Source of the DNA: a phage
DNA length: 64,000 nucleotides
Reading direction: 5' to 3' (one strand)
Sequence record: PV808484.1
Below are positions 6,818 through 35,504 of the stretch, piece after piece. Position 1 is the first letter of the stretch. Each line of letters starts with the position of its first letter. The notes beneath the pieces were generated by a model, which saw only the letters and a program-made list of their open reading frames with translations, was not told the origin of the DNA and searched no databases. Both the position numbers and the translations under genes were made by a program.

Positions 6818-6878
6818 CTCGCTTCGCTCGTCACCTTTCAGGTTTAGGGTAGCATGTTTTTCTGAAAAAGTCAATACT
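6818..6878. repeat. conserved noncoding element, copy 1
   Basis: CTCGCTTCGCTCG...TTAGGGTAGCATGTTTTT...GAAAAAGT; second copy at 35445-35504. Confidence 0.5.
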
Positions 6879-6904
6879 CTCCACAAAACTTTACAAAATA
6901 CTTT

Positions 6905-7177
6905 TTACATAGGTACAACAGAGTCTGTTTTGAAGTCGTACATATGATTTACACCTGTGATTTTTGACATAGAGATCGCACGTTTAGCACCTGCAATTAC
7001 CTGGTCTGTCTTCTTAATCTCTTCACGGAACTTACGCACAGTTAGAGAGAAGAAACGATGATCCATCCATTGACGATTCACACGATCACGCTTGAAGTGA
7101 CGGAAATCTTCAATCTGTTTATTGCGCAATCGGCGCAGTACATGCAATAATTTATAGTAAGGGTGTTTATTTTTCAT
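6905..7177 (-). CDS. hypothetical protein (basic)
   Basis: 90 aa ORF. Confidence 0.5.
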   Translation of the reverse strand: MKNKHPYYKLLHVLRRLRNKQIEDFRHFKRDRVNRQWMDHRFFSLTVRKFREEIKKTDQVIAGAKRAISMSKITGVNHMYDFKTDSVVPM

Positions 7178-7180
7178 AAT

Positions 7181-7609
7181 TTATTCTCCAAATCGAAAAT
7201 CGTCAATATCATCAAACCATACACAATGGCGAGTCCTTTCTTTTTCTGTTGCAGACATTGTTTCAACAGCTTTAGGACTAAGCACAACAGGAATGTAACG
7301 AACAGGTCGTTCATAGTAGTAGCCATACTTTTCTGTATTAGCTGCCTCAAAGACTTTACGGCGTTCTTCAAGATCTTCTATGGTGAATCCTACCATATAA
7401 CCATCATGTTTGCTACCCCATCCTTCCTCACTTTCAACAATCGGGATATAAAAGCCGTTACGCGTCCCTGACGCTGGTTTTTCTTGAGCCTGAAGGCAAG
7501 CCTCCCATCCTGCTTTAAAGACGTTATAGAGCGATTTACGCACGTTATGAGTGCCGCTTTCGCTTGCTGGATAGAGTTCATTAAATTTATCTTGGATTTG
7601 TTGTGTCAT
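7181..7609 (-). CDS. hypothetical protein
   Basis: 142 aa ORF. Confidence 0.5.
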   Translation of the reverse strand: MTQQIQDKFNELYPASESGTHNVRKSLYNVFKAGWEACLQAQEKPASGTRNGFYIPIVESEEGWGSKHDGYMVGFTIEDLEERRKVFEAANTEKYGYYYERPVRYIPVVLSPKAVETMSATEKERTRHCVWFDDIDDFRFGE

Positions 7610-7752
7610 ACTCGCCCCTTAGTGATTATTTGACCAGCTAAACAAATAGCTTGTAGTACAATAAAGAAGTAGCCTAATTTTACACTACCCAATACCCAGA
7701 ATGCAATGTTTGCAAACAAACAAAAAGCAATATTAAGTCTAAAGAATAACAT
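7606..7752 (-). CDS. small hydrophobic peptide (48 aa)
   Basis: hand-translated MLFFRLNIAFCLFANIAFWVLGSVKLGYFFIVLQAICLAGQIITKGRV; fills intergenic gap; overlaps neighbour start. Confidence 0.3.
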   Translation of the reverse strand: MLFFRLNIAFCLFANIAFWVLGSVKLGYFFIVLQAICLAGQIITKGRV

Positions 7753-7953
7753 TTAATCCCCTTCATATTTAGGTAAAGGCATATATGCCACAATAGGAGG
7801 GTAATCAAAGTGAAAATGATGGTTCACCACAATAATCTTACCAGACATACTTTTATGCACTTCACAATACCCTTTTTCACCATCTTCCATTACCACCACA
7901 TACTCACCTAGTGGGATATCGTATGGATCTTCTACTTTTACCCATTCTGTCAT
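7753..7953 (-). CDS. hypothetical protein
   Basis: 66 aa ORF. Confidence 0.45.
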   Translation of the reverse strand: MTEWVKVEDPYDIPLGEYVVVMEDGEKGYCEVHKSMSGKIIVVNHHFHFDYPPIVAYMPLPKYEGD

Positions 7954-8219
7954 TTTGGAAATACCTCTTGTCCATCTTCATGCATTTGTAGTAAAGTTTC
8001 ACAGATTTCATACACATCTTGGTATGTTACAACTGAGAGATCAGATTCTTGATCTTCGACAAGCATAGCACAAAGAGCTTTAATGTCAATACCTTTACAA
8101 TGTTCCGTAGCTACACGGTACATTTCACCATCCTCCCAAACAATTGGTTGCGGGAGCAAAACATCTGTACCATCTTCACAAGTTACAATGTAGTCTGCAA
8201 TATTGTCACGAATTTTCAT
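7950..8219 (-). CDS. hypothetical protein
   Basis: 89 aa ORF; 4-nt overlap coupling. Confidence 0.5.
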   Translation of the reverse strand: MKIRDNIADYIVTCEDGTDVLLPQPIVWEDGEMYRVATEHCKGIDIKALCAMLVEDQESDLSVVTYQDVYEICETLLQMHEDGQEVFPK

Positions 8220-8473
8220 TGTACTACCCCCTTAAATCCAGATGTACTGCCAGTTTTAACTTTTGCTTTAAGATGTTCCAACTCTACCATAGGTGTTGCT
8301 ACTTGTATAGGATTTTCCTCAACCTCATAAATATAATATTCATAATAAGCATACTTACCAATAGAGTGCAGATACTTAATTGCATGTTCAGGCGAATCTG
8401 CTTCAACATACCCTAAATCTTTTGTGGTACGACCTTCGCAATCACCTTCGGTAGTTACATGATAAAGTGTCAT
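8216..8473 (-). CDS. hypothetical protein
   Basis: 85 aa ORF; 4-nt overlap coupling. Confidence 0.5.
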   Translation of the reverse strand: MTLYHVTTEGDCEGRTTKDLGYVEADSPEHAIKYLHSIGKYAYYEYYIYEVEENPIQVATPMVELEHLKAKVKTGSTSGFKGVVQ

Positions 8474-8784
8474 AAAACCTCCTCATAGTAAGGTAAAGCC
8501 TTGATCAGTTGTTCTGAAGTGCCATTTTGCACCCACGTAACACCATTGTCAACAGAAACATACCCTTTTTTGTCAATAAATTTACGCAGACAACCAGTGA
8601 ACTTATTTTTGTAGATCATTTCTTCTTTCCTTTTTTGATTACAGCCCCCGTCACTTCCTTGCCAAACTTCCGCTCTGAATTCCATCTCAAACCACTCACC
8701 ACCGCAAAAACGGCTGTGTTCAACACGTCTATCTTCCTTCATTGCTTCTTTAGCTTCGATAGAAGTTAGTTCGATGTTTTGCAT
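8470..8784 (-). CDS. hypothetical protein
   Basis: start set at internal ATG (MQNIELT) with AAGGAG SD. Confidence 0.45.
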   Translation of the reverse strand: MQNIELTSIEAKEAMKEDRRVEHSRFCGGEWFEMEFRAEVWQGSDGGCNQKRKEEMIYKNKFTGCLRKFIDKKGYVSVDNGVTWVQNGTSEQLIKALPYYEEVL

Positions 8785-8902
8785 TTGCTTTTCTCCTTTC
8801 CTTTGGTATGCGCTAATCTTAACAAAATAAAAACGTATGTCAATACTTGATTTGAAATTAGTTTCTGGTACTCTGTGTGTATCGTAACAAAAGAGGTTAG
8901 AT
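8785..8902. promoter_or_regulatory. divergent promoter / strand-switch region
   Basis: AT-rich 118 bp gap between first minus-strand gene and first plus-strand gene. Confidence 0.4.
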
Positions 8903-13635: not shown

Positions 13636-13854
13636 TATTTTGAAAATTTTTATTTTTATAAAAAGGGGTGTGGGTTTCATGTACGGAAATCCACCCTCTG
13701 AATAATATATCCAGAGTAAGTATTATTCTGTACTCTGTTAATAAATTATTTAATTTGTTTGTTGGATTATGATATCTGGTTTTTAAAAGGCATACTATCT
13801 CTTAACTACTACTTATAACAGAACAGTAAAATCATTTTTATAAAAAGGACAAAA

Positions 13855-14051
13855 TTATTTAAAGTTTTTACAGATTTTTGGGTACAAATTTTGAAAATGA
13901 AAAGTTCAAGTTTGGTCAAAATTATTTAAAGTTTTTGTACGTATTTCCATCCAGATTTTGAAAATGAAAAGTTCAATTTTTTAAAAATTCCCCAGTTTAT
14001 TTAAAGTTTTTTTGCCTTTTTCCGTAGAAAAATCAAAAATGAAAAGTTCAA
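13855..14051. repeat. three imperfect tandem repeats (~67-73 bp) with two conserved boxes
   Basis: box A TTATTTAAAGTTTTT at 13855, 13923, 13997; box B TTTTGAAAATGAAAAGTTCAA at 13889, 13956, 14031. Confidence 0.6.
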
Positions 14052-14076
14052 TTTCGTGTTTTTATAGGTATGCGTA

Positions 14077-14190
14077 TGATAATCATTCTCATTTGTAAAT
14101 GAGAATCATTATCATTTAATTATGTAAGTGATAATCATTCTCAGTAAGAGAATGAGAATCATTAGCAAATGAGAATTTTCTCATTTAGAG
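14077..14190. promoter_or_regulatory. cluster of Fur-box-like palindromes
   Basis: TGATAATCATTCTCATT, AATGAGAATCATTATCATT, GTGATAATCATTCTCAG, AATGAGAATCATTAGC; compare Fur consensus GATAATGATAATCATTATC. Confidence 0.5.
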
Positions 14191-14980: not shown

Positions 14981-15076
14981 ATGATCAAGAAAGAAAACAG
15001 CTTGACGGTTGGAACGATTAACGCTATCATTTTCGCCGTTCCATTTTGGGTTGTAGTAGCGGTTATTATCTTTTAA
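14981..15076 (+). CDS. small hydrophobic peptide (31 aa), type I toxin-like
   Basis: MIKKENSLTVGTINAIIFAVPFWVVVAVIIF; about 120 nt leader containing a 6-codon mini-ORF (MQDGQR) with AAGGAGG SD. Confidence 0.35.
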   Translation: MIKKENSLTVGTINAIIFAVPFWVVVAVIIF

Positions 15077-15084
15077 AAATATTC

Positions 15085-15141
15085 TTGACAACGTTTTTTA
15101 ATCTGATAAGATGTATCACATAGGGCGGCAATAGTGCCGCT
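15085..15141 (+). promoter_or_regulatory. promoter plus 5'-UTR hairpin cassette
   Basis: TTGACA-16-TAAGAT then CATAGGGCGGCAATAGTGCCGCTCATA. Confidence 0.55.
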
Positions 15142-15164
15142 CATAACAGAAGAGAGAAATAATC

Positions 15165-15437
15165 ATGGCATCATATAGCGCATCAATGATCGTAATGGGT
15201 ATCACTGGTAAACCTATGCGCGGTGGCGGATCTTTCGCTAACATCAATATTGATGGACGTTTATCCCTGGACGCAGCGATCACAGTGGCACGGGAAACAT
15301 TTAAAAAAGAATGTAATTTCAATAAACAAGATTATCTCGGTTTCGCTATTGAAAAAACCGCGCGATTTGTGGATTATAAAAGCCCGAAAATGATCGACAC
15401 TACACTAAAAGCGAAAGATGTAGCGTTTTTGCTTTAA
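15165..15437 (+). CDS. hypothetical protein
   Basis: 90 aa ORF downstream of cassette. Confidence 0.55.
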   Translation: MASYSASMIVMGITGKPMRGGGSFANINIDGRLSLDAAITVARETFKKECNFNKQDYLGFAIEKTARFVDYKSPKMIDTTLKAKDVAFLL

Positions 15438-15440
15438 GAC

Positions 15441-15501
15441 TTGACACTGAAAAATAATTTGGTAATATATACCACATAAGGCGGGGAAATGGTTTCCCGC
15501 C
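15441..15501 (+). promoter_or_regulatory. promoter plus 5'-UTR hairpin cassette
   Basis: TTGACA...TAATAT then GGCGGGGAAATGGTTTCCCGCC. Confidence 0.55.
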
Positions 15502-15526
15502 AAGCCATCAAAGAAAGGGTAACACA

Positions 15527-15889
15527 ATGAGCAAGCAAATCAATACTATCATGTTAAACCTGGTATCTTTCCGCGATGACGTGAAAAATCTTTCGCGTGA
15601 TGCAGTGGATGCACGGATCGAAAGCTATCGCACACAGATCGCAACATTACCGTTAAAACGTGATCAACATGCCGCTAATATGATGCTTGATGCTATGATT
15701 AAAAAGATGATTCAATGTGATCTTACTCTGGCTTATGAATATGCTGGCGATCTTTTTGTAACATATAACAAGCCCGTTCCAGGTATGAGCACCACGGAAG
15801 AATTGCATGCCTTAAATCTGCGACAAGATGCATGGGATAACATGCGCCGTGTTATGGTATGGGTAGAAAGCGGTAAAATTTACGAATAA
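15527..15889 (+). CDS. hypothetical protein
   Basis: 120 aa ORF; AAAGGG SD. Confidence 0.55.
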   Translation: MSKQINTIMLNLVSFRDDVKNLSRDAVDARIESYRTQIATLPLKRDQHAANMMLDAMIKKMIQCDLTLAYEYAGDLFVTYNKPVPGMSTTEELHALNLRQDAWDNMRRVMVWVESGKIYE

Positions 15890-15895
15890 AAACGG

Positions 15896-15950
15896 TTGAC
15901 ATTGCACTAAAACCTGATAAGCTATCTTAAAGCGGGAATAGTTCCCGCTT
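15896..15950 (+). promoter_or_regulatory. promoter plus 5'-UTR hairpin cassette
   Basis: TTGACA then AAGCGGGAATAGTTCCCGCTT. Confidence 0.5.
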
Positions 15951-15967
15951 ACATAGGATAAAACTTT

Positions 15968-16114
15968 ATGAAACAATATGTAATGAGTATTCACACCAAA
16001 AACGGCGCTACTGTTACGACTCCGGCACGGTTTGCACTTGTAAACCGTTGCAAGAGACTAAAACGAGAGCTAAAAAACAACCGTGCAACGGGCTTTAAAC
16101 GCTGGGGAGGATAA
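15968..16114 (+). CDS. small basic protein (48 aa)
   Basis: hand-translated MKQYVMSIHTKNGATVTTPARFALVNRCKRLKRELKNNRATGFKRWGG; cassette upstream. Confidence 0.4.
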   Translation: MKQYVMSIHTKNGATVTTPARFALVNRCKRLKRELKNNRATGFKRWGG

Positions 16115-16116
16115 TC

Positions 16117-16389
16117 TTGTTTTTTCTAAAAGTTTTTGATAATGTGATCGCTTTTGAACATGCTGCAACGTTCAACCTGGCGAGATACGCTATCAGGTTT
16201 AAAGATAATGTTTATCCCCGTGCTGGTGGCGGTTACACTATCTTTAATCATCGTAACGCTCAATTAACGGATATAACGAATCCAGATCCTGGAGTGTATC
16301 GCATAGGTTGGCTACCGTCAAAAGACGCGGCAAGCATGTTTAAGGTGTGTAAACTACTAACAGAAGAGGCGAACGAACATGGGGCGTGA
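16117..16389 (+). CDS. hypothetical protein (probable TTG start)
   Basis: no in-frame ATG near 5' end; GGGGAGG SD 6 nt before TTG. Confidence 0.4.
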   Translation: MFFLKVFDNVIAFEHAATFNLARYAIRFKDNVYPRAGGGYTIFNHRNAQLTDITNPDPGVYRIGWLPSKDAASMFKVCKLLTEEANEHGA

Positions 16390-16933
16390 ATATGTGATCC
16401 AGTCCTGGGTAAAGCATGATGCTGATGATCCGCGCATAATACCAGATGACATGATCGATCACATGGTAGGGTATAGCGGGGAGCAGATAGGAAATCGAGC
16501 GGCAAAGAGCAACGGTCACACAAAAACGCGATCCGTTCGCCCTGGTTGGCTGGCAAATGGTAACGCTGACATTGCAAGCGCCGCAGATCCAAGCGATGAC
16601 GCTAAAAATAATCCCTTATACAGCATTGATCCGGCTTTTAAGGTGTTAGAAGAGTATCCCGCTAAATTAGCCGCACTAGATAAAGCATATGAAGAAAAGC
16701 GCATGGCATGGACGGTATACAACACCGCTAAAATGGTGCTAGATGCAAAATTGATTAAAGCCCAGGAGAAGATCAATAAACTTGTTACCATAGCGCAAGA
16801 GGAAGACCAGGACGACCAGGAGGAAGAGGAAGAAATCATGCCTACCCTGGAAGAGGAAGAGATCCAGCCATACATGCCGACGGAAGAGGAAAAAAGACAA
16901 GCCCTAAAAAATTATGAAAATTGTGTTGTGTAA
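16379..16933 (+). CDS. hypothetical protein with acidic C-terminus
   Basis: 184 aa; ATG overlaps upstream stop; EEDQDDQEEEEE tract. Confidence 0.5.
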   Translation: MGREYVIQSWVKHDADDPRIIPDDMIDHMVGYSGEQIGNRAAKSNGHTKTRSVRPGWLANGNADIASAADPSDDAKNNPLYSIDPAFKVLEEYPAKLAALDKAYEEKRMAWTVYNTAKMVLDAKLIKAQEKINKLVTIAQEEDQDDQEEEEEIMPTLEEEEIQPYMPTEEEKRQALKNYENCVV

Positions 16934-16936
16934 GGC

Positions 16937-17042
16937 TTGACATATGCAAACAAGCCCCGTAATATGTACCACATAAAGCGGGGCAACGCCCCATAAGGTG
17001 AAATAAAAAATCACTTGACACCTGAAATCAGTAAGCTATAAT
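16937..17042 (+). promoter_or_regulatory. tandem promoters, first with 5' hairpin
   Basis: TTGACA-17-TAATAT then AAGCGGGGCAACGCCCCAT; second TTGACA-16-TATAAT. Confidence 0.5.
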
Positions 17043-17079
17043 GCTTATATAGATTGAAACATTACTAAGGAATAAAAGC

Positions 17080-17259
17080 ATGGCTATTATTGCAAAGACT
17101 GAGATCGTAGGTTTAGATTCTATCATCCTGGCATATGAGGAAGCTATAGAAATGTATGTGGTTTCCTATGGTGATTATATCCGTGAATATAAATCTATTG
17201 ATCTAGCTTTTGAATGCTATATTCGCCAGGTCAATAAAGCCTATGATGATTATCGTTAA
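17080..17259 (+). CDS. small protein (59 aa)
   Basis: hand-translated MAIIAKTEIVGLDSIILAYEEAIEMYVVSYGDYIREYKSIDLAFECYIRQVNKAYDDYR. Confidence 0.4.
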   Translation: MAIIAKTEIVGLDSIILAYEEAIEMYVVSYGDYIREYKSIDLAFECYIRQVNKAYDDYR

Positions 17260-17354
17260 AAGTTTTAGTCTTGTGCTATTGACAACGAACGATAGTGCAA
17301 GCATAATAACTTTTATCGGGAATACTCCTAACTAATCAAAAGAGATTAAAGACT

Positions 17355-17720
17355 ATGGCTAAAAATATCAATGTTTCTGCTTATGCTACCCTGGCTAACA
17401 CTGCTAAAATTGAACTATCCAGCATTGAAGCGGTACATATTAGCGCCCGTCGCTGGTTTCAAAAGTCTTATGGTAACACTTATTTCTCTTTGATGGTTGA
17501 CGTTGAGATCGGCGGTAAACTGATTGAAGTCGTTAACGTTCCGTTTCACTATGGCTACGGGGATCATTTTGATACCGTTGCCCTAGAAGAGTTTAGCAAG
17601 GTTATCAACCTGGAAGGTAAAGAATTTTCAAATTATGCCTACCTTTCCCGTTTTTGCCGTGATAATGGGATCGCTGTATACAGTCATGCAAGCGATGTTA
17701 AACGTAAAAAAGATTTATAA
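17355..17720 (+). CDS. hypothetical protein
   Basis: 121 aa ORF; TTGACA-type promoter about 17280. Confidence 0.55.
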   Translation: MAKNINVSAYATLANTAKIELSSIEAVHISARRWFQKSYGNTYFSLMVDVEIGGKLIEVVNVPFHYGYGDHFDTVALEEFSKVINLEGKEFSNYAYLSRFCRDNGIAVYSHASDVKRKKDL

Positions 17721-17726
17721 AAAGCA

Positions 17727-17754
17727 TTGACAGCACGAATAAAAAGCGTAAAAT
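17727..17754 (+). promoter_or_regulatory. sigma70-like promoter with no ORF directly downstream
   Basis: TTGACA-16-TAAAAT; followed by about 85 nt structured noncoding sequence. Confidence 0.4.
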
Positions 17755-17840
17755 GTTTCATATCAGGACGGGGAACGAAGTAACACCCCGTTAAGTAGCC
17801 CAGGAGTAAGACACACGAAAAACTCCCCTGATAAAATAGT

Positions 17841-17901
17841 TTGACAATGGTTTCTAATAACGTATAATACTTACATCGAGAGCGGGAACACTTCCCGCCT
17901 C
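17841..17901 (+). promoter_or_regulatory. promoter plus 5'-UTR hairpin cassette
   Basis: TTGACA-16-TATAAT then AGCGGGAACACTTCCCGCC. Confidence 0.55.
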
Positions 17902-17923
17902 ACTGAAAAAAGAGATTAACATC

Positions 17924-18163
17924 ATGGCTAAATCTAAAATGTTCTTAGGTCACAAAAACAAAACTCATTGGAATGTAAGCCTTTGGATCAACAACGATGA
18001 AGGTTTTTATAATCTTGCGCGTGAATTTATCGCAGCTAACACCAATAAGAATGACGCAGCGCGTGATATGATGTTATTTCTTGAAAGTATGGATCAAGAT
18101 AAAACGCCAGACGGATTCAAGTTCAGTAAAACCGCGATCCGTGCCGCTATGGTTGGAATGTAA
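17924..18163 (+). CDS. hypothetical protein
   Basis: 79 aa ORF. Confidence 0.55.
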   Translation: MAKSKMFLGHKNKTHWNVSLWINNDEGFYNLAREFIAANTNKNDAARDMMLFLESMDQDKTPDGFKFSKTAIRAAMVGM

Positions 18164-18258
18164 AGGAGACATAAAAATGAAACATCGTTCGACCTATCTC
18201 ACAAAACGTTTTAGCTTAGATCATAAATTGGGCTATTACGGAAGAAATAGAAAATAAT

Positions 18259-18318
18259 TTGACAACGTTTTAAATTAGTGTAAGATATATCACATAGGGC
18301 GGGAAATGGTTTCCCGCC
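18259..18318 (+). promoter_or_regulatory. promoter plus 5'-UTR hairpin cassette
   Basis: TTGACAACGTTTT...TAAGAT then GGGCGGGAAATGGTTTCCCGCC. Confidence 0.55.
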
Positions 18319-18340
18319 AAATCAAAGAAAGGTTATCATT

Positions 18341-18568
18341 ATGGCTATCATTATTGTTCGCGTATCCGGTACGGTTGGAAGCTCCCAGGTAGTAGCAGTT
18401 ATCACAGAGAAGAAAGGGGATGATCTTCACTCTTCCTTGAATAGTTGGGCGGTCGCTAATTTTGGTCAGTGGTCGAGCGTCGAGTATATCGAATCCTACC
18501 AGGTGCCGACGATTAGCCTAACCGATTTAAATGTTGATCGCTTGTTGTGCCTGGATGGATTAAACTAA
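18341..18568 (+). CDS. hypothetical protein
   Basis: 75 aa ORF. Confidence 0.55.
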   Translation: MAIIIVRVSGTVGSSQVVAVITEKKGDDLHSSLNSWAVANFGQWSSVEYIESYQVPTISLTDLNVDRLLCLDGLN

Positions 18569-18576
18569 AAATAATC

Positions 18577-18633
18577 TTGACAAGATAACTAAAATCAGTA
18601 AAATGTAATGCATAGGGCGGCAATAGTGCCGCT
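18577..18633 (+). promoter_or_regulatory. promoter plus 5'-UTR hairpin cassette
   Basis: TTGACA-16-TAAAAT then CATAGGGCGGCAATAGTGCCGCTCATA. Confidence 0.55.
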
Positions 18634-18655
18634 CATAGTAAGAGAGATTATCAAA

Positions 18656-18871
18656 ATGGCTAATATCCGCACACTGTTAAAAAATGCAAGTCAAGTTTTA
18701 TTTTCAGATGACGAGTATTTCAACAAAGACATTACAGGCGTGAAAAATTTAAAAGACGTGAAGGATGTTATCGGTATCCGTGGATCTTTACGTAAAGGTG
18801 ACATATACGGTAACAAGGTGCAATATAAACTGTCAAAAGATTATGATTTTACTTTGACAATTATCAATTAA
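18656..18871 (+). CDS. hypothetical protein
   Basis: start at internal ATG (MANIRT) downstream of cassette. Confidence 0.5.
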   Translation: MANIRTLLKNASQVLFSDDEYFNKDITGVKNLKDVKDVIGIRGSLRKGDIYGNKVQYKLSKDYDFTLTIIN

Positions 18872-18882
18872 GGGATCACAAA

Positions 18883-19041
18883 ATGAAAACTTGCCAATGT
18901 GGTAAAAAGTCTATCTCTGGTTTAAAACGTGGCGTTGCTCTTTGTCAATATCACTATAACGCTCAAACGTGGGGTAAGCAGTGGGCGGATCAGATGGAAG
19001 AGGCAAAGAAAGAAAATATAAAAGTAGTTGCAAAGAAATAA
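18883..19041 (+). CDS. small Cys-containing protein (52 aa)
   Basis: hand-translated MKTCQCGKKSISGLKRGVALCQYHYNAQTWGKQWADQMEEAKKENIKVVAKK. Confidence 0.4.
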   Translation: MKTCQCGKKSISGLKRGVALCQYHYNAQTWGKQWADQMEEAKKENIKVVAKK

Positions 19042-19112
19042 AAATAAAGTAAACTGTATTCATCAAGGCGGTGGAATAGCCCACCGCCTAACAAAGAGAA
19101 GAGGAAAACATC

Positions 19113-19283
19113 ATGATCACTTTCGCTACCCGTGAAGCCGCTCGCAACGTTGCACGTAAAGTTAACGCCGCCAACCTGGGCGCTACGTTTAAAGCCCCGG
19201 TGAAAGATGAGTCAGGAAAATGGATCTTCCCTGGTCTGCGTCACGCTGATAAGCTGGGAACATTAACGTTAAAAAATAAATAA
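19113..19283 (+). CDS. small protein (56 aa)
   Basis: hand-translated MITFATREAARNVARKV...; preceded by hairpin GGCGGTGGAATAGCCCACCGCC. Confidence 0.4.
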   Translation: MITFATREAARNVARKVNAANLGATFKAPVKDESGKWIFPGLRHADKLGTLTLKNK

Positions 19284-19290
19284 GATCCGC

Positions 19291-19349
19291 TTGACAGTAG
19301 CATGATTTATAAGTAAAGTAACAACAACGGCGGGAAATGGTTTCCCGCC
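19291..19349 (+). promoter_or_regulatory. promoter plus 5'-UTR hairpin cassette
   Basis: TTGACA-17-TAAAGT then GGCGGGAAATGGTTTCCCGCC. Confidence 0.55.
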
Positions 19350-19369
19350 ATCAATAAAGAGATAAGATT

Positions 19370-19729
19370 ATGAAATCAGTAAAAGCAATCAAAACTTACA
19401 TTGTATCGGCTATTTCTTTTGAAGGTACTACAACCGAAAAAGAAAAAATCACCGAACTGATGCGCCGTTTTAATTCTGAATACTGGTATCCCGATAATCA
19501 AAAACGTTACAATTATAACGTGATCAAGGCGATAGCCTCATGGTTACAAGGTTTACCGTCAGACATTAACATCGCCTTTGATTATAACGAGATCGATCAC
19601 TTGTTAATTGAATGGAAGTACATAAAAGAAACAAGCAAAGAAACAACCGTTACCCGTGAGCGGGAAAATTATTGGTTATATATTGCAAGCATGATCGTAA
19701 TCCTGGCAAAACAGCATAACGTGGCGTAA
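19370..19729 (+). CDS. hypothetical protein
   Basis: 119 aa ORF. Confidence 0.55.
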   Translation: MKSVKAIKTYIVSAISFEGTTTEKEKITELMRRFNSEYWYPDNQKRYNYNVIKAIASWLQGLPSDINIAFDYNEIDHLLIEWKYIKETSKETTVTRERENYWLYIASMIVILAKQHNVA

Positions 19730-19743
19730 TTAAGAGGAAGAAA

Positions 19744-19881
19744 CATGAACGCATCACAGCAGATCGAAAAATTCAACCGCAGCAAGGCGCGTAAAGATTG
19801 GAACGAAGAGATCACCAAAAAAGGCGACAAGCGGAACAAAACAAAAAGAGATCGCAGCACAAAAAGACACTGGAACGAATA
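19744..19881 (+). CDS. small basic protein (45 aa)
   Basis: hand-translated MNASQQIEKFNRSKARKDWNEEITKKGDKRNKTKRDRSTKRHWNE; terminator follows. Confidence 0.35.
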
Positions 19882-19887
19882 ACAAAA

Positions 19888-19910
19888 AAGGGCGCAATAA
19901 GCGCCCTTTT
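19888..19910 (+). terminator. rho-independent terminator
   Basis: AGGGCGC-AATAA-GCGCCCT then TTTTA. Confidence 0.6.
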
Positions 19911-20000
19911 AGCTTATATAGAGGCTTGTTACCCATAGGCAATGGTAACGCCAGGGCAAGCCTATAAACAACGTTAGACGGCTTTACAGGAGCTTTAAAA

Positions 20001-20183
20001 ATGAGATTAGAAGAAATAAGCAAGGCACTAGCCCAGGGGCAAAGGTTATGCGCCAGATATCGTGATCAATATGGCTTCATAACTAGCGGCGTGATCCTGG
20101 GGATTGAAGGCAATAAGATTTTTATTGACACGTTGAAAAACGTTGTATATAGTGACAATATAATCTCAATAAAACATATATGA
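20001..20183 (+). CDS. hypothetical protein
   Basis: 60 aa ORF. Confidence 0.45.
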   Translation: MRLEEISKALAQGQRLCARYRDQYGFITSGVILGIEGNKIFIDTLKNVVYSDNIISIKHI

Positions 20184-20593
20184 GGCAAGAAATGAAAAAC
20201 TTATTGATCGCTGGTTTACTCTCTTTTGGTATGGTTGGAACATCTAGCGCGGCGATATCCTCCACAGTAGCAGAATTAAGCGCCGTTGATGCAATGGAAA
20301 ACGTCATGCTTATTAATAATGCGATCCCCGATGAAATCATGGAGGATTCACACATGATCGCTTATGGTGCTGTTACACAACTAACGGCAAAAATAGATAA
20401 ATCTATTGTTAATGGCTTAAATGAAGATGTACCATGTGAAATTATTACCAGTGTGCTTACTACTCAAAATTTTACGCCGTGGTTAAAAAGTATTCAAAAA
20501 GTACACAGTACAGCCGCAGATCGTAGCAATGAAAAACTAGTGTCAGCACTTGCAACGTATACCCTAGCAAAATGCACCGAGATAAAAGATTGA
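20180..20593 (+). CDS. predicted secreted protein
   Basis: N-terminal KNLLIAGLLSFGMVGTSSA signal-peptide-like segment. Confidence 0.5.
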   Translation: MRQEMKNLLIAGLLSFGMVGTSSAAISSTVAELSAVDAMENVMLINNAIPDEIMEDSHMIAYGAVTQLTAKIDKSIVNGLNEDVPCEIITSVLTTQNFTPWLKSIQKVHSTAADRSNEKLVSALATYTLAKCTEIKD

Positions 20594-20616
20594 CAACATA
20601 GAAAGCACGTTATAAG
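20590..20616 (+). promoter_or_regulatory. sigma70-like promoter
   Basis: TTGACA-15-TATAAG, then AAGGAG SD. Confidence 0.45.
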
Positions 20617-20640
20617 ATACACACAACAAAGGAGAACTAC

Positions 20641-21658: not shown

Positions 21659-21678
21659 CATCAATAAAGAGATAAGCT

Positions 21679-21963: not shown

Positions 21964-21964
21964 T

Positions 21965-22022
21965 TTGACAGCAGAAAAACAACGTAGTAAAGTTTATCAC
22001 ATAGGGCGGCAATAGTGCCGCT
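21965..22022 (+). promoter_or_regulatory. promoter plus 5'-UTR hairpin cassette
   Basis: TTGACA-17-TAAAGT then CATAGGGCGGCAATAGTGCCGCTCATA. Confidence 0.55.
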
Positions 22023-22044
22023 CATAACAGAAGAGAAACAAATC

Positions 22045-22215
22045 ATGATCCCGACTATGTTTTATGTATCGCGCAAAGGTCACAATATTTTTTGGTCTGA
22101 AGATTTAAATGAAGCCATGACGTTTGCCCGTGATCGTGTTGCTATCGGTGGCGTTAACATTACTGTAACCGATGAAAATGGCATTGAATACTATAACGGC
22201 GACGATGAAGAGTAA
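22045..22215 (+). CDS. small protein (56 aa)
   Basis: start at ATG (MIPTMF) downstream of cassette. Confidence 0.45.
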   Translation: MIPTMFYVSRKGHNIFWSEDLNEAMTFARDRVAIGGVNITVTDENGIEYYNGDDEE

Positions 22216-22260
22216 TTAACAAGGCGGGGAGTATTCCCGCCGTCAATAAAGGATAATATC

Positions 22261-22398
22261 ATGAAAACTTTCAACGCAACAGCATCAACAATTGGTTATA
22301 TTATCACCGTGCAAGCTATTGATCTAGTAGCTGCAACAAACAAGATTAAAAACATGATCCCTGTAGGCAGTGATTTTTCCGTTTGGGAAGTAAAATAA
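22261..22398 (+). CDS. small protein (45 aa)
   Basis: MKTFNATASTIGYIITVQAIDLVAATNKIKNMIPVGSDFSVWEVK; hairpin GGCGGGGAGTATTCCCGCC upstream. Confidence 0.35.
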   Translation: MKTFNATASTIGYIITVQAIDLVAATNKIKNMIPVGSDFSVWEVK

Positions 22399-22401
22399 AT
22401 C

Positions 22402-22463
22402 TTGACAGTGATTTGTTATTTGATAAGATGTACTACGTAGGGCGTGGCAATAAGGCAACGCCC
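22402..22463 (+). promoter_or_regulatory. promoter plus 5'-UTR hairpin cassette
   Basis: TTGACA-17-TAAGAT then GGGCGTGGCAATAAGGCAACGCCC. Confidence 0.5.
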
Positions 22464-22484
22464 CACATCAGAAAGGGAAAGATT

Positions 22485-22721
22485 ATGACTATAGCAACAG
22501 TATTAACCGCCGTTAAAACCGCCGAATCATCCGGCTTGCATGTTGAGATTATAGATCAACCAGGTGGCGATCTCCTTGTCCAGGTTTACCCGCCGAAAGT
22601 AGGGGATGATTATTATTGGTGCTATTCTGATACGTTCGAACAAGTAGACACGAAAGCGATCACGGCTTTTATTTTAAAAGCTATTGAAGAAAATAACTTT
22701 CATTATAACATCAATCAATAA
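22485..22721 (+). CDS. hypothetical protein
   Basis: start at internal ATG (MTIATV) after AAAGGG SD. Confidence 0.5.
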   Translation: MTIATVLTAVKTAESSGLHVEIIDQPGGDLLVQVYPPKVGDDYYWCYSDTFEQVDTKAITAFILKAIEENNFHYNINQ

Positions 22722-22763
22722 ACCATAAGCGGGGCAGTAACGCCCACTAATGAGGGTAAAATC

Positions 22764-22868
22764 ATGTTAGAGAAAATTTTCACGGTTGTAGTAGTGGGCC
22801 TGGCGTTATCGGTTGGAGTGGTTGCAACTATGGCTAACATGATTCTATCTTCTCACGGTATTGGATAA
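22764..22868 (+). CDS. small hydrophobic peptide (34 aa)
   Basis: MLEKIFTVVVVGLALSVGVVATMANMILSSHGIG. Confidence 0.3.
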   Translation: MLEKIFTVVVVGLALSVGVVATMANMILSSHGIG

Positions 22869-22878
22869 GGTGAATCAA

Positions 22879-23094
22879 ATGATCACGAATAAGACAGGTA
22901 AAACAGAATTTTTACGCGGCTTGCAAATAGGTAAACCTGAGATCTGGCATTGCACTAAATCCGCGCATAATGAAATGAAAGATTTTACCGCTACTTTACA
23001 ACGTGTTAAAATATCTATCACACAGAAAAAAGCCTTGTTAGTAGTAGAAAACGAGATCCCGCAAACTATTATTATTGTCGAGCGTACAGCATGA
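22879..23094 (+). CDS. hypothetical protein
   Basis: ATG (MITNKTG) with AAGGTG SD. Confidence 0.5.
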   Translation: MITNKTGKTEFLRGLQIGKPEIWHCTKSAHNEMKDFTATLQRVKISITQKKALLVVENEIPQTIIIVERTA

Positions 23095-23477
23095 AAACAG
23101 AAATCATTATTGAAATCATCAACGGTTATAAAGAAGCCTTTATTTTTGCTGAATCCGCCAGGGATCATGAAGGTAATTTTATTGATAACTTGACTGATTA
23201 TGATTTTTCAGATCAAGCCCATCAGCGGATCATTCATGACGTAGCGGCTTATTGTGATGCCAATGATGCCGCTATCTCTGAGGCAATGAGCGACGGCGCA
23301 ACAGCCAACCAGATCGGGAATGATTTACATTTTACCCGTAATAGTCACGGCGTAGGCTTTTGGGATCGCCCTGAAATATACACTACTAACACCGCCAACC
23401 GCTTAACTAATGCAGCTAAATTGATGCCATCGGTGCATGCTTACATTGGTGAAGATAATTTGATTTATATTGAATAA
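23091..23477 (+). CDS. hypothetical protein
   Basis: 128 aa ORF; ATGA overlap. Confidence 0.55.
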   Translation: MKTEIIIEIINGYKEAFIFAESARDHEGNFIDNLTDYDFSDQAHQRIIHDVAAYCDANDAAISEAMSDGATANQIGNDLHFTRNSHGVGFWDRPEIYTTNTANRLTNAAKLMPSVHAYIGEDNLIYIE

Positions 23478-23483
23478 AAAGTA

Positions 23484-23542
23484 TTGACACCGATCCCCAA
23501 TATGGTACTATTTACCACGTAGGCGGGAAATGGTTTCCCGCC
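23484..23542 (+). promoter_or_regulatory. promoter plus 5'-UTR hairpin cassette
   Basis: TTGACA then GGCGGGAAATGGTTTCCCGCC. Confidence 0.55.
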
Positions 23543-23565
23543 AGGTAATCAAAAAGGTAAATACT

Positions 23566-23955
23566 ATGCGCAACCTGGTTTCTGTTTCTAACGTTGAAAA
23601 ATTTCAATCTTTACAGGGTATCGTTAACAACGTAGCGCCTTTTTTAGTCAACGGCTTGATTGCAAAGATGAAAAATAAACATCATGCGGCATGGTCTGCT
23701 TACTGCTTTGATAATGATGAAAAAGCGGCTGAAATGATGTTAAATATGCTGTTAGACAGTGTAGAATCATCTTTACCGGAAAACATCGCAGAAGAGATCA
23801 CCTATCGTTATAATATGGCGATCACTTACCAGGAGGTTGCGCAATTTAATATGATGGACGATGACGAACAACAGGATCAGGAAATTTTCTGGGAGTATGC
23901 AGATCGTCAATCGGCTTTTGATGAAAAGTTAGCGATGTATTATAACGAATATTAA
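23566..23955 (+). CDS. hypothetical protein
   Basis: start at internal ATG (MRNLVS). Confidence 0.5.
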   Translation: MRNLVSVSNVEKFQSLQGIVNNVAPFLVNGLIAKMKNKHHAAWSAYCFDNDEKAAEMMLNMLLDSVESSLPENIAEEITYRYNMAITYQEVAQFNMMDDDEQQDQEIFWEYADRQSAFDEKLAMYYNEY

Positions 23956-23970
23956 TACACGGTAAAAGAA

Positions 23971-23997
23971 AGGGGCGCACTAAGCGCCCTTTTTTGT
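23971..23997 (+). terminator. rho-independent terminator
   Basis: GGGCGC-ACTAA-GCGCCC then TTTTTTG. Confidence 0.7.
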
Positions 23998-24341
23998 ATT
24001 CTTTTTTCACAATGGAAGCGACACGTAAAGAATAGGCGTAAAAGGTGGCGTAAAACCATCTAAAACCGACTGTAACCGCTTAAACAAGGCAGGGATGATT
24101 AATCCCCTTACCAGGATGAAAAAGCTGTTAGAGAGCTATTCATAGCGTTTAAAGCACATAGGAAATAATTTGCTTTTTATCTTGCCTTTTATCCTGCTTT
24201 TGATTATTATTATGGAACGGGCGGCACCTGGGGACAGGGGAAGATAATCACCGGAAGATCCCGCTATATATTGATAGCTAATACCTATTAAACAACAAAA
24301 CATCAAAGGGATAAACTATCAAATCTTTACAATCCTACCTA

Positions 24342-24400
24342 TTGACACACGATCACCCTTATACTAATATGTATCCCGTAGGCGGGAAATGGTTTCCCGC
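24342..24400 (+). promoter_or_regulatory. promoter plus 5'-UTR hairpin cassette
   Basis: TTGACA-17-TAATAT then GGCGGGAAATGGTTTCCCGC. Confidence 0.55.
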
Positions 24401-24419
24401 TTGATATAGGAATCATACC

Positions 24420-25357: not shown

Positions 25358-25430
25358 GTGATAATCATTCTTATTTATAGCTGATTATTTATGCAATAAA
25401 CTGCATAATGCAATAATGATAATCATTCTT
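25358..25430. promoter_or_regulatory. Fur-box-like palindromes
   Basis: GTGATAATCATTCTTA and AATAATGATAATCATTCTT; the latter 16/19 to Fur consensus. Confidence 0.5.
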
Positions 25431-25982: not shown

Positions 25983-26296
25983 TAATGTTTGGAACATTGG
26001 CTATAATATAAGCTAAATAATAAGCTATTCAATAATAAACATAATGAATAATGACACTGATGATCATAATGCGCCACCTTCCAGGGGGCGCTATGTGAAC
26101 ACAAAGAAATCTTTCTTGTCAAGAAAAATATTAACACTATTGCGCAAAATTATTTATGTCTGAATAGATGATTTTTCATACTATTGTTATTATTTATCGG
26201 CCCTAACTATTGCCTATTTGTTGAGCCTACTTTCTTAAAAGCGCAATAAATCAGAATTATCTTGATTTTTAGGGTGTTTTATAGTATAGAAAATAT

Positions 26297-26317
26297 GCAA
26301 ATGATAATCATTATCAG
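26297..26317. promoter_or_regulatory. Fur-box-like site (near consensus)
   Basis: GCAAATGATAATCATTATCAG; 16 contiguous matches to Fur consensus. Confidence 0.55.
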
Positions 26318-26481
26318 CTATCTTCCACGGGTGGCACTATTTCACGCAGGATCATTTCATTTGGCAAGGTGTATATAGATGTTTAGACTTGCCAAGCCAT
26401 TGATTTACTTAGAATTTATCTGTTTTGTTGTGAGTAGTACCTTTCTTGCTCAGAAAATAATCAAAAGTCTTATAAGTCATT

Positions 26482-26513
26482 GAATGATAATGCAAATGAT
26501 AATTATTCTCATT
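26482..26513. promoter_or_regulatory. Fur-box-like site
   Basis: GAATGATAATGCAAATGATAATTATTCTCATT. Confidence 0.45.
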
Positions 26514-26872
26514 GATATTTGAGGGGGACGGTCGGCAGAAATCGGGGGGCGCTGAAAATCGCGTTAAGCACCTCTCGCAAGCGAGCAGTATTTTGCGGCA
26601 AGTTATTGATATTATTGGCTTTACGCTTATGGAAAGGGGGTGTGTCGAAATAAATCGGGTATACCGGAAAATTTTTGTGGCATAGATATTTATTTGTCTA
26701 TATTATGTACAAAGGGGTGTGTTAAAAATATTAGGTATATATAGAATAATTGATAGGGAAATCCTATACTAATTCCTCCATTAATGATGTTTCTATGTTG
26801 CTGTTCTTGTAACAGATGAAAAGACGCTGTATGATGTGTAGCATGAAACGTAAATTTATAAAGGAGTCTGAT

Positions 26873-27241
26873 ATGTGTGTTCCTCTTAGCAGTCCTCTGC
26901 TGTTAGAATTTTACAAAGCATGGATGGAAGATCATTCCTCAATGCATCGTGAGAATGTTGGTTTGTGTAATTGCCTTATGGATTACCTGGCAACCACTAT
27001 GTCAAAGAAAAAGCCTACGGAAGAAGATATAGAATATTTCAAGATGGTTCGTAGCAAAACGCTGAAAGAGATGAAACTGCAATTCACGTGTGCTGGGCTA
27101 TCCTCCTTCCTACCCTTTAATTATGATCTTCTATGTTATGAAGATGAAGGTAAGACACATTCTTGCCATACCAACCCAAAGAGATTGCAGTGGGTGAAAG
27201 ATCGTATTGCCGATTCATGTTTGGTGTTAGGGGGGTGGTAA
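26873..27241 (+). CDS. paralog family A protein
   Basis: start at ATG (MCVPLSS) after AAGGAG SD; shared motifs FYKAW, GLC.CL.DY, FTCAGL, LPFN, CHTN..RLQWVKDRI. Confidence 0.55.
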   Translation: MCVPLSSPLLLEFYKAWMEDHSSMHRENVGLCNCLMDYLATTMSKKKPTEEDIEYFKMVRSKTLKEMKLQFTCAGLSSFLPFNYDLLCYEDEGKTHSCHTNPKRLQWVKDRIADSCLVLGGW

Positions 27242-27609
27242 TGAAAAGTAATATTCCGTTGAGTAGTGCAGCTTTAATACGATTCTATAAAGCATGGATT
27301 GCCAACCATCCGGCAATGAATCGCACAACGAGTGGCTTGTGTGGTTGTCTGGTAGATTATGTAGATGATTTTGTTGGCGAGGTAACTAGAGAAGAAGATA
27401 AAAGATGGCGTGATCGTTTGTTGGATAGTTTGAAATACGAAATGAGGAAACAATTTACATGTGCAGGACTGGACTACAATCTTCCGTTCAATGTAGATTG
27501 CATGGATTACCTTTCAGAGTGTATAGACTTGGCGTGTCATACCAACACGTTACGTCTTCAATGGGTGAAAGACAGAATCGAAGATGCAAATAATGCTTGC
27601 ATTGAATAG
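27241..27609 (+). CDS. paralog family A protein
   Basis: tandem duplicate of previous gene; same motif set; ATG overlaps upstream stop. Confidence 0.6.
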   Translation: MKSNIPLSSAALIRFYKAWIANHPAMNRTTSGLCGCLVDYVDDFVGEVTREEDKRWRDRLLDSLKYEMRKQFTCAGLDYNLPFNVDCMDYLSECIDLACHTNTLRLQWVKDRIEDANNACIE

Positions 27610-33891: not shown

Positions 33892-34121
33892 ACATCGGAC
33901 AACCCATTTTTGATGCAGATACTGGTCAATATGCAGTGATTGTTGCTCGTATGAGCGGTGATGACTTTATTGTTTCAGAACTACTCGGATCAGATCCGCA
34001 ACTGCGAGTAGTATGTGACCTATATCTTCGAGACGAAAGTGATCGCATTGCACTGAAAGAAGATGGTATGCTTTACTACACCTGGACTAGAGATCCTGGT
34101 GTAAAGGAGGTAGAGGTATAA
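33882..34121 (+). CDS. hypothetical protein
   Basis: 79 aa ORF. Confidence 0.5.
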   Translation: MQLNIGQPIFDADTGQYAVIVARMSGDDFIVSELLGSDPQLRVVCDLYLRDESDRIALKEDGMLYYTWTRDPGVKEVEV

Positions 34122-34420
34122 TGGTAAGGAATAGGGGTTTACATAAAAGAAGACACCTTACTTACTGGCATCGCAAAGTACATGAACCTGTATCAAAGAA
34201 AGAATGGCAATACCTTCCTTATGGAAAGGAGCGAAGGAAGTATTTGTTAGCTCATTTAAGGGTACATGGTTCGCTTCCTGTTAACAGTAAGTGGCAATTG
34301 CAAACAGCTTATGACGAAGATATGAAATATCTGTTAAAGAGAGGCATTATTTGCCTTGTTAAGATAGGACGATGGAAATCTCGTCAATCTTATATCGTAC
34401 TTAAACAGGAGAAACCATGA
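34121..34420 (+). CDS. hypothetical basic protein
   Basis: 99 aa, K/R-rich; AGGAGG SD. Confidence 0.55.
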   Translation: MVRNRGLHKRRHLTYWHRKVHEPVSKKEWQYLPYGKERRKYLLAHLRVHGSLPVNSKWQLQTAYDEDMKYLLKRGIICLVKIGRWKSRQSYIVLKQEKP

Positions 34421-34668
34421 ATATCAAAGATGTTGTAGCATATGTAGAAGATGAAGTTAAAAACCATACAAGTTTACTGAAAGTAATGGTTGTGGTTAAA
34501 AATGGCATTGGACAAGTAAACGTACAACATGTCTTATCTGATACTGTATATAATGTGTTTGAATGTAAAGACACACCTCATGGAGTACGTGTGGTGTATA
34601 TTGATAACAATTTCAAAGAGTGTGTGAGACATACCTTAGAAAATGAGCTAAGGATCACAATCTTATGA
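34417..34668 (+). CDS. hypothetical protein
   Basis: 83 aa ORF. Confidence 0.55.
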   Translation: MNIKDVVAYVEDEVKNHTSLLKVMVVVKNGIGQVNVQHVLSDTVYNVFECKDTPHGVRVVYIDNNFKECVRHTLENELRITIL

Positions 34669-34838
34669 GTTATTATGTTGTACCCTATGCCAATAAGTGG
34701 AGAGTAAGAGAAACTTGTTTTCTATTCTCCTGGTGGGCTACGTTCGGAGATGGTTGTGGAAATGATACAGGGAAGCCTGTAGAGTATGACACAAAAGAAG
34801 AATGTGAACAGTGGATAAAATTAACACAAAGATGTTGA
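34665..34838 (+). CDS. small Cys/Trp-rich protein (57 aa)
   Basis: MSYYVVPYANKWRVRETCFLFSWWATFGDGCGNDTGKPVEYDTKEECEQWIKLTQRC; ATGA overlap. Confidence 0.4.
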   Translation: MSYYVVPYANKWRVRETCFLFSWWATFGDGCGNDTGKPVEYDTKEECEQWIKLTQRC

Positions 34839-34863
34839 CACGATCTTAACTTCTTGTTAGTAT
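34835..34863 (+). promoter_or_regulatory. sigma70-like promoter
   Basis: TTGACA-17-TAGTAT upstream of 34892. Confidence 0.4.
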
Positions 34864-34891
34864 CAATATGTACTAACGATAAGGAGGGTTT

Positions 34892-35116
34892 ATGAAGTCT
34901 GTAAACAAGTTGCAACAATTTTTGTTATCAACAGCAATCTTTTTGCTTTTGTTAATTGGTATTCTGTATGGTGCATCTAACTTATACAATCTACACAACA
35001 ATGTAGAACATAATATAGAGAAGTGCACCATCCTAAAACACAATAAACAAGCAGAAGATTTCTTAAAGAACAAGTGTTACAACTACATTGATTATGAGGA
35101 GACAAACAATGATTAA
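34892..35116 (+). CDS. paralog family B small membrane-anchored protein
   Basis: N-terminal TM helix; AAGGAGGG SD. Confidence 0.5.
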   Translation: MKSVNKLQQFLLSTAIFLLLLIGILYGASNLYNLHNNVEHNIEKCTILKHNKQAEDFLKNKCYNYIDYEETNND

Positions 35117-35351
35117 AGAATTAGGTATGCGAGTATACAGTGAGTGGACTCCAAGCAATGGCCCAGGAGTTGTTGCAGCTAAATGTATCAATGGTCGTAT
35201 TGAGTACCTAGAAGGGTATGAAGATAATGAAGAGTTAGTAGATTATGCTAAATCTTTTATTGAAGATGATACAGACTTTATTGTATTATATGATACAGGA
35301 GAGTTAGAGTATGGATATGATGGAGATGGGGATATCTTTGAACTTCAATAA
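35109..35351 (+). CDS. hypothetical protein
   Basis: start at ATG (MIKELGM) overlapping upstream end. Confidence 0.5.
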   Translation: MIKELGMRVYSEWTPSNGPGVVAAKCINGRIEYLEGYEDNEELVDYAKSFIEDDTDFIVLYDTGELEYGYDGDGDIFELQ

Positions 35352-35444
35352 GAGTAGTAAGTAAGGTATAAAGAGTATATAGTTAGTTATAGAGTTAGTA
35401 ACATTACATATACTCTTCCCATGTATAACATGGAATATTCTCTA

Positions 35445-35504
35445 CCTCGCTATCGCTCGGTATATAAGATTAGGGTAGCATGTTTTTTACGAAAAGTAAA
35501 ACTG
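35445..35504. repeat. conserved noncoding element, copy 2
   Basis: CCTCGCTATCGCTCGG...TTAGGGTAGCATGTTTTTT...GAAAAGT; matches 6818-6878. Confidence 0.5.

Follow-up and report, generated by a model that had tools for sequence, protein, structure and literature searches.

The 64,000-nucleotide (nt) stretch of the phage sequence record PV808484.1 analysed in this work, hereafter the window, harbors two copies of an intergenic cassette which, read on the minus strand, has the layout of a sigma70-type extended −10 promoter with an odd, invariant −10 hexamer, followed by a hairpin box of 13–14 nt. Judging from the sequence comparisons, we consider it somewhat probable that the host RNA polymerase starts at about positions 6838 and 35465 on the minus strand and that the RNAs begin with a mini-hairpin protecting or marking their 5′ ends. 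The anatomy of the cassette, its copy number and conservation, the strand to which the structure belongs and the gene contexts are established.

The promoter class with its box combines two known kinds of element, an extended −10 promoter and a 5′ stem-loop. No description of this class or of the box was found in the literature, in which searches by sequence strings returned unrelated primer matches only, and the paper on phage rV5 gives only consensus sigma70 promoters and a T4-late-like motif. A Hok/Sok lead from a paper citing phi92 proved irrelevant. No transcript study was found for phi92-like or phAPEC8-like phages, the transcription of which is essentially unmapped, and the present result offers three candidate start sites per genome, one of which would belong to a conserved antisense promoter within the early region.

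Copy number and conservation of the cassette

The element had been noticed in a sequence-only reading of the window as an identical 18-mer accompanied by two further shared blocks. The 18-mer TTAGGGTAGCATGTTTTT is indeed found on the plus strand at 6844–6861 and 35470–35487, and the GAAAAGT block is present in both copies. The shared CTCGCT(A)TCGCTCG block is also real, occurring as CTCGCTTCGCTCG at 6818–6830 and as CTCGCTATCGCTCG at 35446–35459, with the start given earlier for the second copy (35445) being one base early. As evidence, a lone exact 18-mer repeat in 64 kilobases (kb) is weak, since 0.18 matches are expected by the pattern scan and two were reached in 3 of 100 shuffles. The whole unit is far beyond chance, because an nhmmer profile built from 12 copies, all of them from other genomes, finds exactly two sites in the window, both on the minus strand, at 6877–6815 (E=2.5e-16) and 35502–35442 (E=1.9e-14), with the next match having E=2.6.

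Both intergenic regions are those of phi92-like phages (Justusliebigvirus, Stephanstirmvirinae), with 97–99.9% identity. According to the list of open reading frames (ORFs), copy 1 lies in the gap 6740–6904 and copy 2 in the gap 35352–35558, which correspond to the phi92 gp209/gp208 and gp023/gp024 gaps, respectively, both without annotation in phi92. The concern raised earlier that the motif might occur only twice genome-wide does not hold, as the complete relatives carry three copies: in the genome-wide search exactly three were found both in OZ035773 (Justusliebigvirus; ~73.6, 100.5 and 140.1 kb) and in OZ035771 (Phapecoctavirus; 74.3, 100.1 and 141.0 kb), at matching map positions, the third copy falling outside the window. 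Across orthologues, conservation is limited to the stretch from the −35 element through the box, and the flanks diverge. In the two complete genomes every box has a promoter upstream and there are no orphan boxes. Rfam gave no match at the element, either for the window at the gathering threshold or for 13 loci at E≤1.

The same cassette was found in Citrobacter, Buttiauxella and Scandinavium in a scan of bacterial contigs with one genome per species. These bacterial cassettes consist of TTGACT or TTGACA, 18 nt, TGcTACCCT and a box with a GAA or GTAA loop; they stand directly after an integrase gene and are followed by a conserved noncoding stretch of ~1 kb and then by a DUF5906 gene. The IMG/VR locus L034 represents the same type of element. 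Beyond the cassette, no similarity of the integrated element was found to the phage collection or to the complete genomes of E. coli. A shared phage factor was considered and rejected, since a tblastn search of the integrated-element proteins against two phage genomes gave just a methylase and a protein of 225 amino acids (aa). The presence of the cassette in integrated elements that have no regulator in common with the phages favours recognition by host machinery.

Anatomy of the predicted promoter on the minus strand

The cassette is composed of a −35 element, a spacer, TG, one free base, TACCCT, usually AA, a variable linker of 9–16 nt and the box. In an alignment of 15 distinct instances, TTGAC(T/A) or TTTACT is located upstream of TACCCT in 14, at a spacing of 17 nt (10 copies) or 18 nt (four copies), and TG occupies −15/−14 in all 15, while −13 varies (C in 13, G in one and A in one). 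The hexamer keeps T−12, A−11 and T−7, which amounts to three of the six positions of the consensus TATAAT, and it is also present in all eight of the instances that were collected independently of it (by scanning two genomes for the box alone, plus two blastn hits). Because the conserved and variable positions of the 15 instances follow the sigma70 pattern, the unit can be read as a sigma70-type extended −10 promoter on the minus strand; together with the role proposed below for the hairpin, this reading is slightly on the probable side.

The statement made earlier that the element does not resemble a sigma70 promoter is wrong on the minus strand, where GAAAAGT(C/A)AA is the reverse complement of the −35 element (TTGACT or TTTACT). 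The 18-mer contains the end of the spacer, the extended −10 TG and TACCCT, at a spacing of 17 nt, and the CTCGCT..CGCTCG block is the complement of the conserved hairpin just past the predicted start, outside the promoter proper. In copy 1, direct reading places the −35 element TTGACT at 6869–6874 with 17-nt spacing, the extended −10 TGc at 6852–6854 (TG at 6853–6854 being −15/−14 and C at 6852 being −13) and TACCCT at 6846–6851, with T−12, A−11 and T−7 kept; standard sigma70 geometry would put the transcription start at 6838–6839, 7–8 nt past the −10 element. In copy 2, the −35 element is TTTACT at 35495–35500 (TTGACT in the Phapecoctavirus orthologues), again with 17-nt spacing, and TGc at 35478–35480 and TACCCT at 35472–35477 are assigned from the sequence and the alignment; the same geometry predicts a start at the A in position 35465. 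All these elements are on the minus strand.

The −35 element, the spacer of 17–18 nt, the invariant TG, the free −13 position and T−12/A−11/T−7 are shared with the E. coli sigma70 extended −10 (TGn) promoters, as are the AT-rich AAATAAAT-like tracts upstream of the −35 element in several phage copies, whereas the −10 core is invariantly CCC here (TACCCT and not TATAAT). A search of the window for the composite pattern TT[GT]ACN-N14-15-TGnTAnnnT gave 13 matches, both copies included, compared to 1.1 ± 0.9 in shuffles, so the phage uses the extended −10 architecture widely. Promoters preferred by sigmaS have the consensus KCTAYRCTTAA. The cassette sequence TGcTACCCTAA resembles it at about 8 of 11 positions, with G/T at −14, C at −13 (13 of 15), TAY at −12 to −10, C−8, T−7 and an A-rich −5/−4, and departs from it in having C for a purine at −9, A for T at −6 and a good −35 element; this resemblance is a lead only.

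The motif had also been suggested to be, for example, a phage-specific promoter class or a protein-binding site. The guess was largely right as regards a promoter, the unit reading as a minus-strand one of the sigma70 type, but its non-sigma70 part did not stand and its phage-specific part is doubtful: no RNA polymerase domain is present in the ten largest ORFs (at least 628 aa) of the complete relative, the largest of which codes for a 1104-aa family A DNA polymerase, making the host polymerase the expected reader, and the cassette occurs in enterobacterial chromosomal elements as well. A plus-strand phage-specific promoter as first read, for instance an N4-like one with the hairpin strand as template, seems highly improbable to us. 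It would have copies 2 and 3 facing genes on the plus strand, and the promoters of the N4 virion RNA polymerase are GCGGAGC/GAA-loop mini-hairpins, three per genome (PMC13037366), so that the number of sites and the C(GNA)G mini-hairpin beside conserved sequence are alike in the two systems. However, the −35/TG/−10 pattern at 17 or 18 nt is meaningful on the minus strand only, and in the present case the hairpin belongs to the sense strand and comes after a promoter of the sigma70 type, instead of being upstream on the template strand. Besides, the complete relative has no ORF longer than 1104 aa and no virion RNA polymerase candidate among its ten largest, and the integrated elements carrying the cassette share with the phage just the methylase and one other protein.

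The hairpin box and its possible roles

The box has the form CGAG-C(G..A loop)G-CGAG, in which the arms pair with each other as C-G, G·A, A·G and G-C, the two G·A pairs being of the sheared type, and an additional C-G pair closes a loop always beginning with G and ending with A; the helix usually runs three to four covarying pairs further into the non-conserved flanks. Covariation was assessed on a set of 18 sequences, with the loops GATA (five), GAA (five), GCA (three), GAAA (two), GTAA (two) and GGGA (one). In this set 84.9% of the cells pair, against 26–45% when the partner column is slid, and covariation scores 0.387, compared with 0.170 for the shuffles, none of 500 of which reached the observed value. 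Four of the seven pairs are changed on both sides, with 19 cells covered; pair 8-23 is AU in eight sequences, CG in seven and UA in one, and pair 6-25, for which five pair types occur, is paired in 18 of 18. G·U occupies 14 cells and A·C none, which assigns the structure to the promoter-sense strand.

The same hairpin is the minimum free energy (MFE) fold of the RNA for every type tested and is retained inside both full leaders. In copy 1 it is UGA-CGAGC-GAA-GCGAG-UUA at 6815–6833 of the minus strand (box 6818–6830), the MFE structure both alone and in the full leader, with covarying flanking pairs. In copy 2, UAC-CGAGC-GAUA-GCGAG-GUA at 35443–35462, also of the minus strand (box 35446–35459), has an MFE of −7.9 kcal/mol and a z-score of −3.7 and is likewise supported by covariation.

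From this arrangement we infer both the transcription start at these sites and a function for the hairpin. In the proposed mechanism each cassette would be read on the minus strand by the host RNA polymerase as a sigma70 extended −10 type promoter, the hairpin would start ~3–9 nt into the transcript, and the RNAs of all three promoters of a genome would share this 5′ structure. Copy 1 would drive an 88-aa gene and the genes after it, and copy 2 would yield an antisense RNA directed against the end of the early operon. The hairpin would most likely protect or mark the 5′ ends both of the antisense RNA and of leaders that are long and poorly translated, or provide a handle for one shared regulator. 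Stem-loops at the very 5′ end are known to stabilise bacterial messenger RNAs in leaders of the ompA type. In the cassettes, too, the hairpin starts within a few nt of the predicted 5′ end, the leaders being long and untranslated, but unlike the ompA-type structures it is invariant in sequence and rich in non-canonical G·A pairs, with a predicted unpaired 5′ tail of ~3–9 nt.

The recurrence of a TACCCT −10 element with a G·A mini-hairpin in unrelated mobile elements may indicate that promoter and leader form a portable module, one recognised by a host factor. Such a module could serve as a compact part for expression or RNA stability, its 13-nt structure being cleanly mutable, and could be used as an annotation marker for these phages, which are used therapeutically.

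Several observations weigh against this interpretation. A consensus promoter scan calls neither copy, because the −10 hexamer matches the consensus at only three of six positions. No ORF is located downstream of copy 2, and nothing alignable among the orthologues remains beyond the box. The predicted stability of the RNA hairpins is modest for the GAA and GCA loops, at −3.5 and −4.3 kcal/mol (z-scores of about −1.1 to −1.3), and the 12 invariant bases exceed the needs of a plain stabilising hairpin. Three-base GNA loops typify the very stable mini-hairpins of DNA and are much weaker in RNA (PMC13037366). Finally, a second small hairpin of the C(GAA)G type spans the predicted start in several copies and, straddling it, could not form in the RNA.

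It is possible, though unlikely, that the box acts as DNA, in which case a non-template mini-hairpin would be extruded on promoter firing or supercoiling and serve as a primase or replisome site or as an R-loop stabiliser, with three replication initiation sites per genome. All 18 boxes, with all six loop types listed above, fit the consensus GCGNAGC/GCGNNAGC (also GCG(N/NN)AGC) of the mini-hairpin DNA of Hirao (PMC13037366), and the flanking CGAG..CGAG arms would give C:G, G:A, A:G and G:C pairs exactly as in the CGAG block defined by nuclear magnetic resonance (PMC10085684). Mini-hairpin motifs are known at the G4/St-1 primase origins, RSF1010 ssiA and the N4 early promoters, and their DNA forms are far stabler than the RNA ones (PMC13037366). 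The second C(GAA)G hairpin across the predicted start, the position of the integrated-element cassette before a repeat-containing noncoding kilobase and a DUF5906 gene, and the lack of a coding target for copy 2 are consistent with such a role as well. Somewhat less likely still is the more specific version in which CGAG-C(GNA)G-CGAG would be an extruded DNA mini-hairpin marking transcription-activated replication or priming sites and portable between the lytic phi92-like phages and small enterobacterial integrase/DUF5906 elements; if the hairpin does act as DNA, the mini-hairpins of small single-stranded DNA phages and N4 would be linked to large double-stranded DNA phages.

Against a DNA role stand the 14 G·T-type wobble cells, with runs of two to three in L171 and L179, which are poorly tolerated in DNA stems, and the ordinary GC-rich hairpins found at the same distance from other promoters of the same genome. 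The known mini-hairpins and the CGAG block were characterised as single-stranded DNA, whereas the wobble pairs and the post-promoter position of the box favour RNA. No iterons or unwinding element are common to the three sites. An AT-rich tract does follow copy 3, but an upstream element of a second promoter is the better interpretation of it, and within the window the repeat arrays at 13.8–14.2 kb are better origin candidates. With an energy model that has no special loop bonus, DNA folding gives the hairpins of the window and of the c3 type 0 to −2.9 kcal/mol and that of L044 −6.0 kcal/mol.

The conserved blocks could also be double-stranded DNA operators, with a repressor or activator binding the tandem AGCGA repeats and/or TACCCTAA and controlling the promoter, which we find very unlikely. 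The covariation of the flanks as base pairs and the wobble asymmetry point to a single-strand structure, and the distance from the −10 element to the box ranges from 9 to 16 nt, being ill-suited to a protein contacting both or contacting the polymerase. No shared regulator gene was found in the tblastn comparison of the integrated-element proteins with the two phage genomes. On the other side, the sequence is invariant across genera, including the non-consensus CCC of the −10 element, the box can be written as tandem AGCGA(N0-1)AGCGA, and a TACCCT/AGGGTA palindrome follows the box in L065.

Gene contexts and further features

Both window copies have the same orientation despite opposite-strand local genes, as had been stated earlier, and the gene contexts offer an answer to this: copy 1 is co-directional with its neighbours, and copy 2 would be a conserved antisense promoter. 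The gene following copy 1 (6473–6739, minus strand, from the ORF list) encodes a predicted 88-aa membrane protein in the phi92 gp208 region and has further minus-strand genes after it; its start lies 115 nt past the −10 element and is preceded by an AGGAG site. The protein has no Pfam family, and the orthologous site in the distant relative L022 precedes an 89-aa homologue of it. For the rest of the copy 1 leader (6740–6814, minus strand) a long hairpin is predicted, with the Shine-Dalgarno region base-paired to AGUAUUCUCUAUAG. The predicted RNA fold of 6740–6838 has −32.9 kcal/mol and a z-score of −4.65, matched by none of 200 shuffles, and this leader hairpin may provide translational control of the 88-aa gene.

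Copy 3 is located in a divergent gap upstream of a 297-aa ORF, outside the window, at the gp106/gp107 intergenic site, and precedes a prs-like operon. By position and length, the 297-aa ORF corresponds to phi92 gp107, a prs-like gene.

Copy 2 runs counter to the plus-strand early genes, toward the 3′ end of the upstream gene, and in all five genomes compared (the window, OZ035771, L051, L064 and phiWec179) this type of copy is directed at the 3′ end of a gene of opposite orientation. The upstream early genes end in a terminator-like hairpin at 35419–35433 on the plus strand (one site in the terminator scan, 0.2 expected), which a copy 2 transcript would enter from the other side. Having no ORF and no alignable sequence past the box, copy 2 would give a product without evident function. 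A conserved small RNA was considered here and rejected, since the orthologues share just the box hairpin, though each leader folds well. The oop antisense RNA of lambda is comparable in that its small promoter is situated behind a gene and directs transcription back across the 3′ end of that gene, but no conservation is seen in the RNA that would follow copy 2.

The terminator-like hairpin faced by copy 2 also bears on the idea that the box is a nascent-RNA site of the nut/boxB kind, at which processive antitermination or another RNA-binding factor would act and give read-through of downstream terminators. We regard this as quite unlikely. Like lambda nut (boxB), the box is a short hairpin close to the promoter, its loop is of the G..A (GNRA-like) kind, and it is present at few sites per genome, each just past a dedicated promoter; its sequence invariance goes beyond structural need, and a terminator-like hairpin with a T-run is located between the box and the gene in L022 and L168. 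Nevertheless, the alignments contain no conserved boxA-like partner or second element, the window copy 1 leader has no T-run terminator, and no candidate factor is common to the phages and the integrated elements. N-like and Q-like genes were not identified, though no exhaustive or systematic protein search was made for them.

The preferred reading, in which a sigma70-type promoter is followed by a 5′ RNA hairpin, is supported by a precedent at other promoters of the phage. In the window region 15074–24413, on the plus strand, there are two families of near-consensus sigma70 promoters with a conserved hairpin 10–11 nt downstream, the hairpin being GGCGGCAATAGTGCCGC at 15124, 18616 and 22005 and GGCGGGAAATGGTTTCCCGCC at 15481, 18298, 19329, 23522 and 24381. 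Both classes are conserved in Phapecoctavirus. With two such classes in the early region (15–24.4 kb), a promoter with a 5′ hairpin is the house style of the phage group, and the TACCCT cassette is its third, rarer class.

The integrated elements are arranged as an integrase gene, the cassette, ~1 kb of noncoding sequence, small ORFs and the DUF5906 gene in L172 (~3130–4126, Citrobacter sp. OP27 chromosome) and also in L171, L177, L179 and L034. Their ~1-kb noncoding stretch is highly conserved and has internal repeats and covarying hairpins, with no Rfam match.

TACCCT with the box was also considered as a general motif of diverse viruses and rejected: IMG/VR contains 88 such loci against 33 for a control hexamer, and the excess beyond phi92-like contigs comes from two groups of related contigs, a GC-rich one and one with the motif inside long inverted repeats. 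It can be explained by one chance event per group, multiplied by relatedness. In these two mutually unrelated viral contig groups (L059–L061, L075, L078, L079, L111 and L132; and L062–L128 with GCCTGTTACCCTG) a CGAGCG(N)AGCGAG hairpin follows TACCCT at a distance of a few bases; the motif is inside inverted repeats of ~130 nt in one group and just before a gene start in the other.

As to the window itself, the left terminal repeat of phi92 (1–343) aligns to 26224–26566, so the window spans the genome ends. The region 26784–27558, ~0.8 kb including the ORF 26816–27241, is missing in phi92, falling between its positions ~562 and 566, just inside the left end. A tRNA scan of the window found none. 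The UvrD-like helicase of the relative OZ035773 contains an intein (937 aa), while the window copy (1281–3056) is intein-free, with 591 aa, and the 1104-aa family A DNA polymerase of OZ035773 also looks interrupted by eye; the OZ035773 loci concerned are L003 40138–43452 and L004 17109–19922.

A Fur-box-like site with two mismatches to the 19-base-pair (bp) consensus GATAATGATAATCATTATC is located at 26297–26315, within the match to the phi92 terminal repeat; it would be unusual for a phage genome to have sites for an iron regulator at its end. Another such site is found at 25412–25430, and four overlapping ones are located in a noncoding gap near 14.1 kb (14072–14166). Adjoining these Fur-box-like inverted repeats, in a noncoding gap of ~660 bp, there are three tandem repeats of 67–75 bp, 72–73% alike, at 13834–14054, and this gap is a candidate origin or packaging region.

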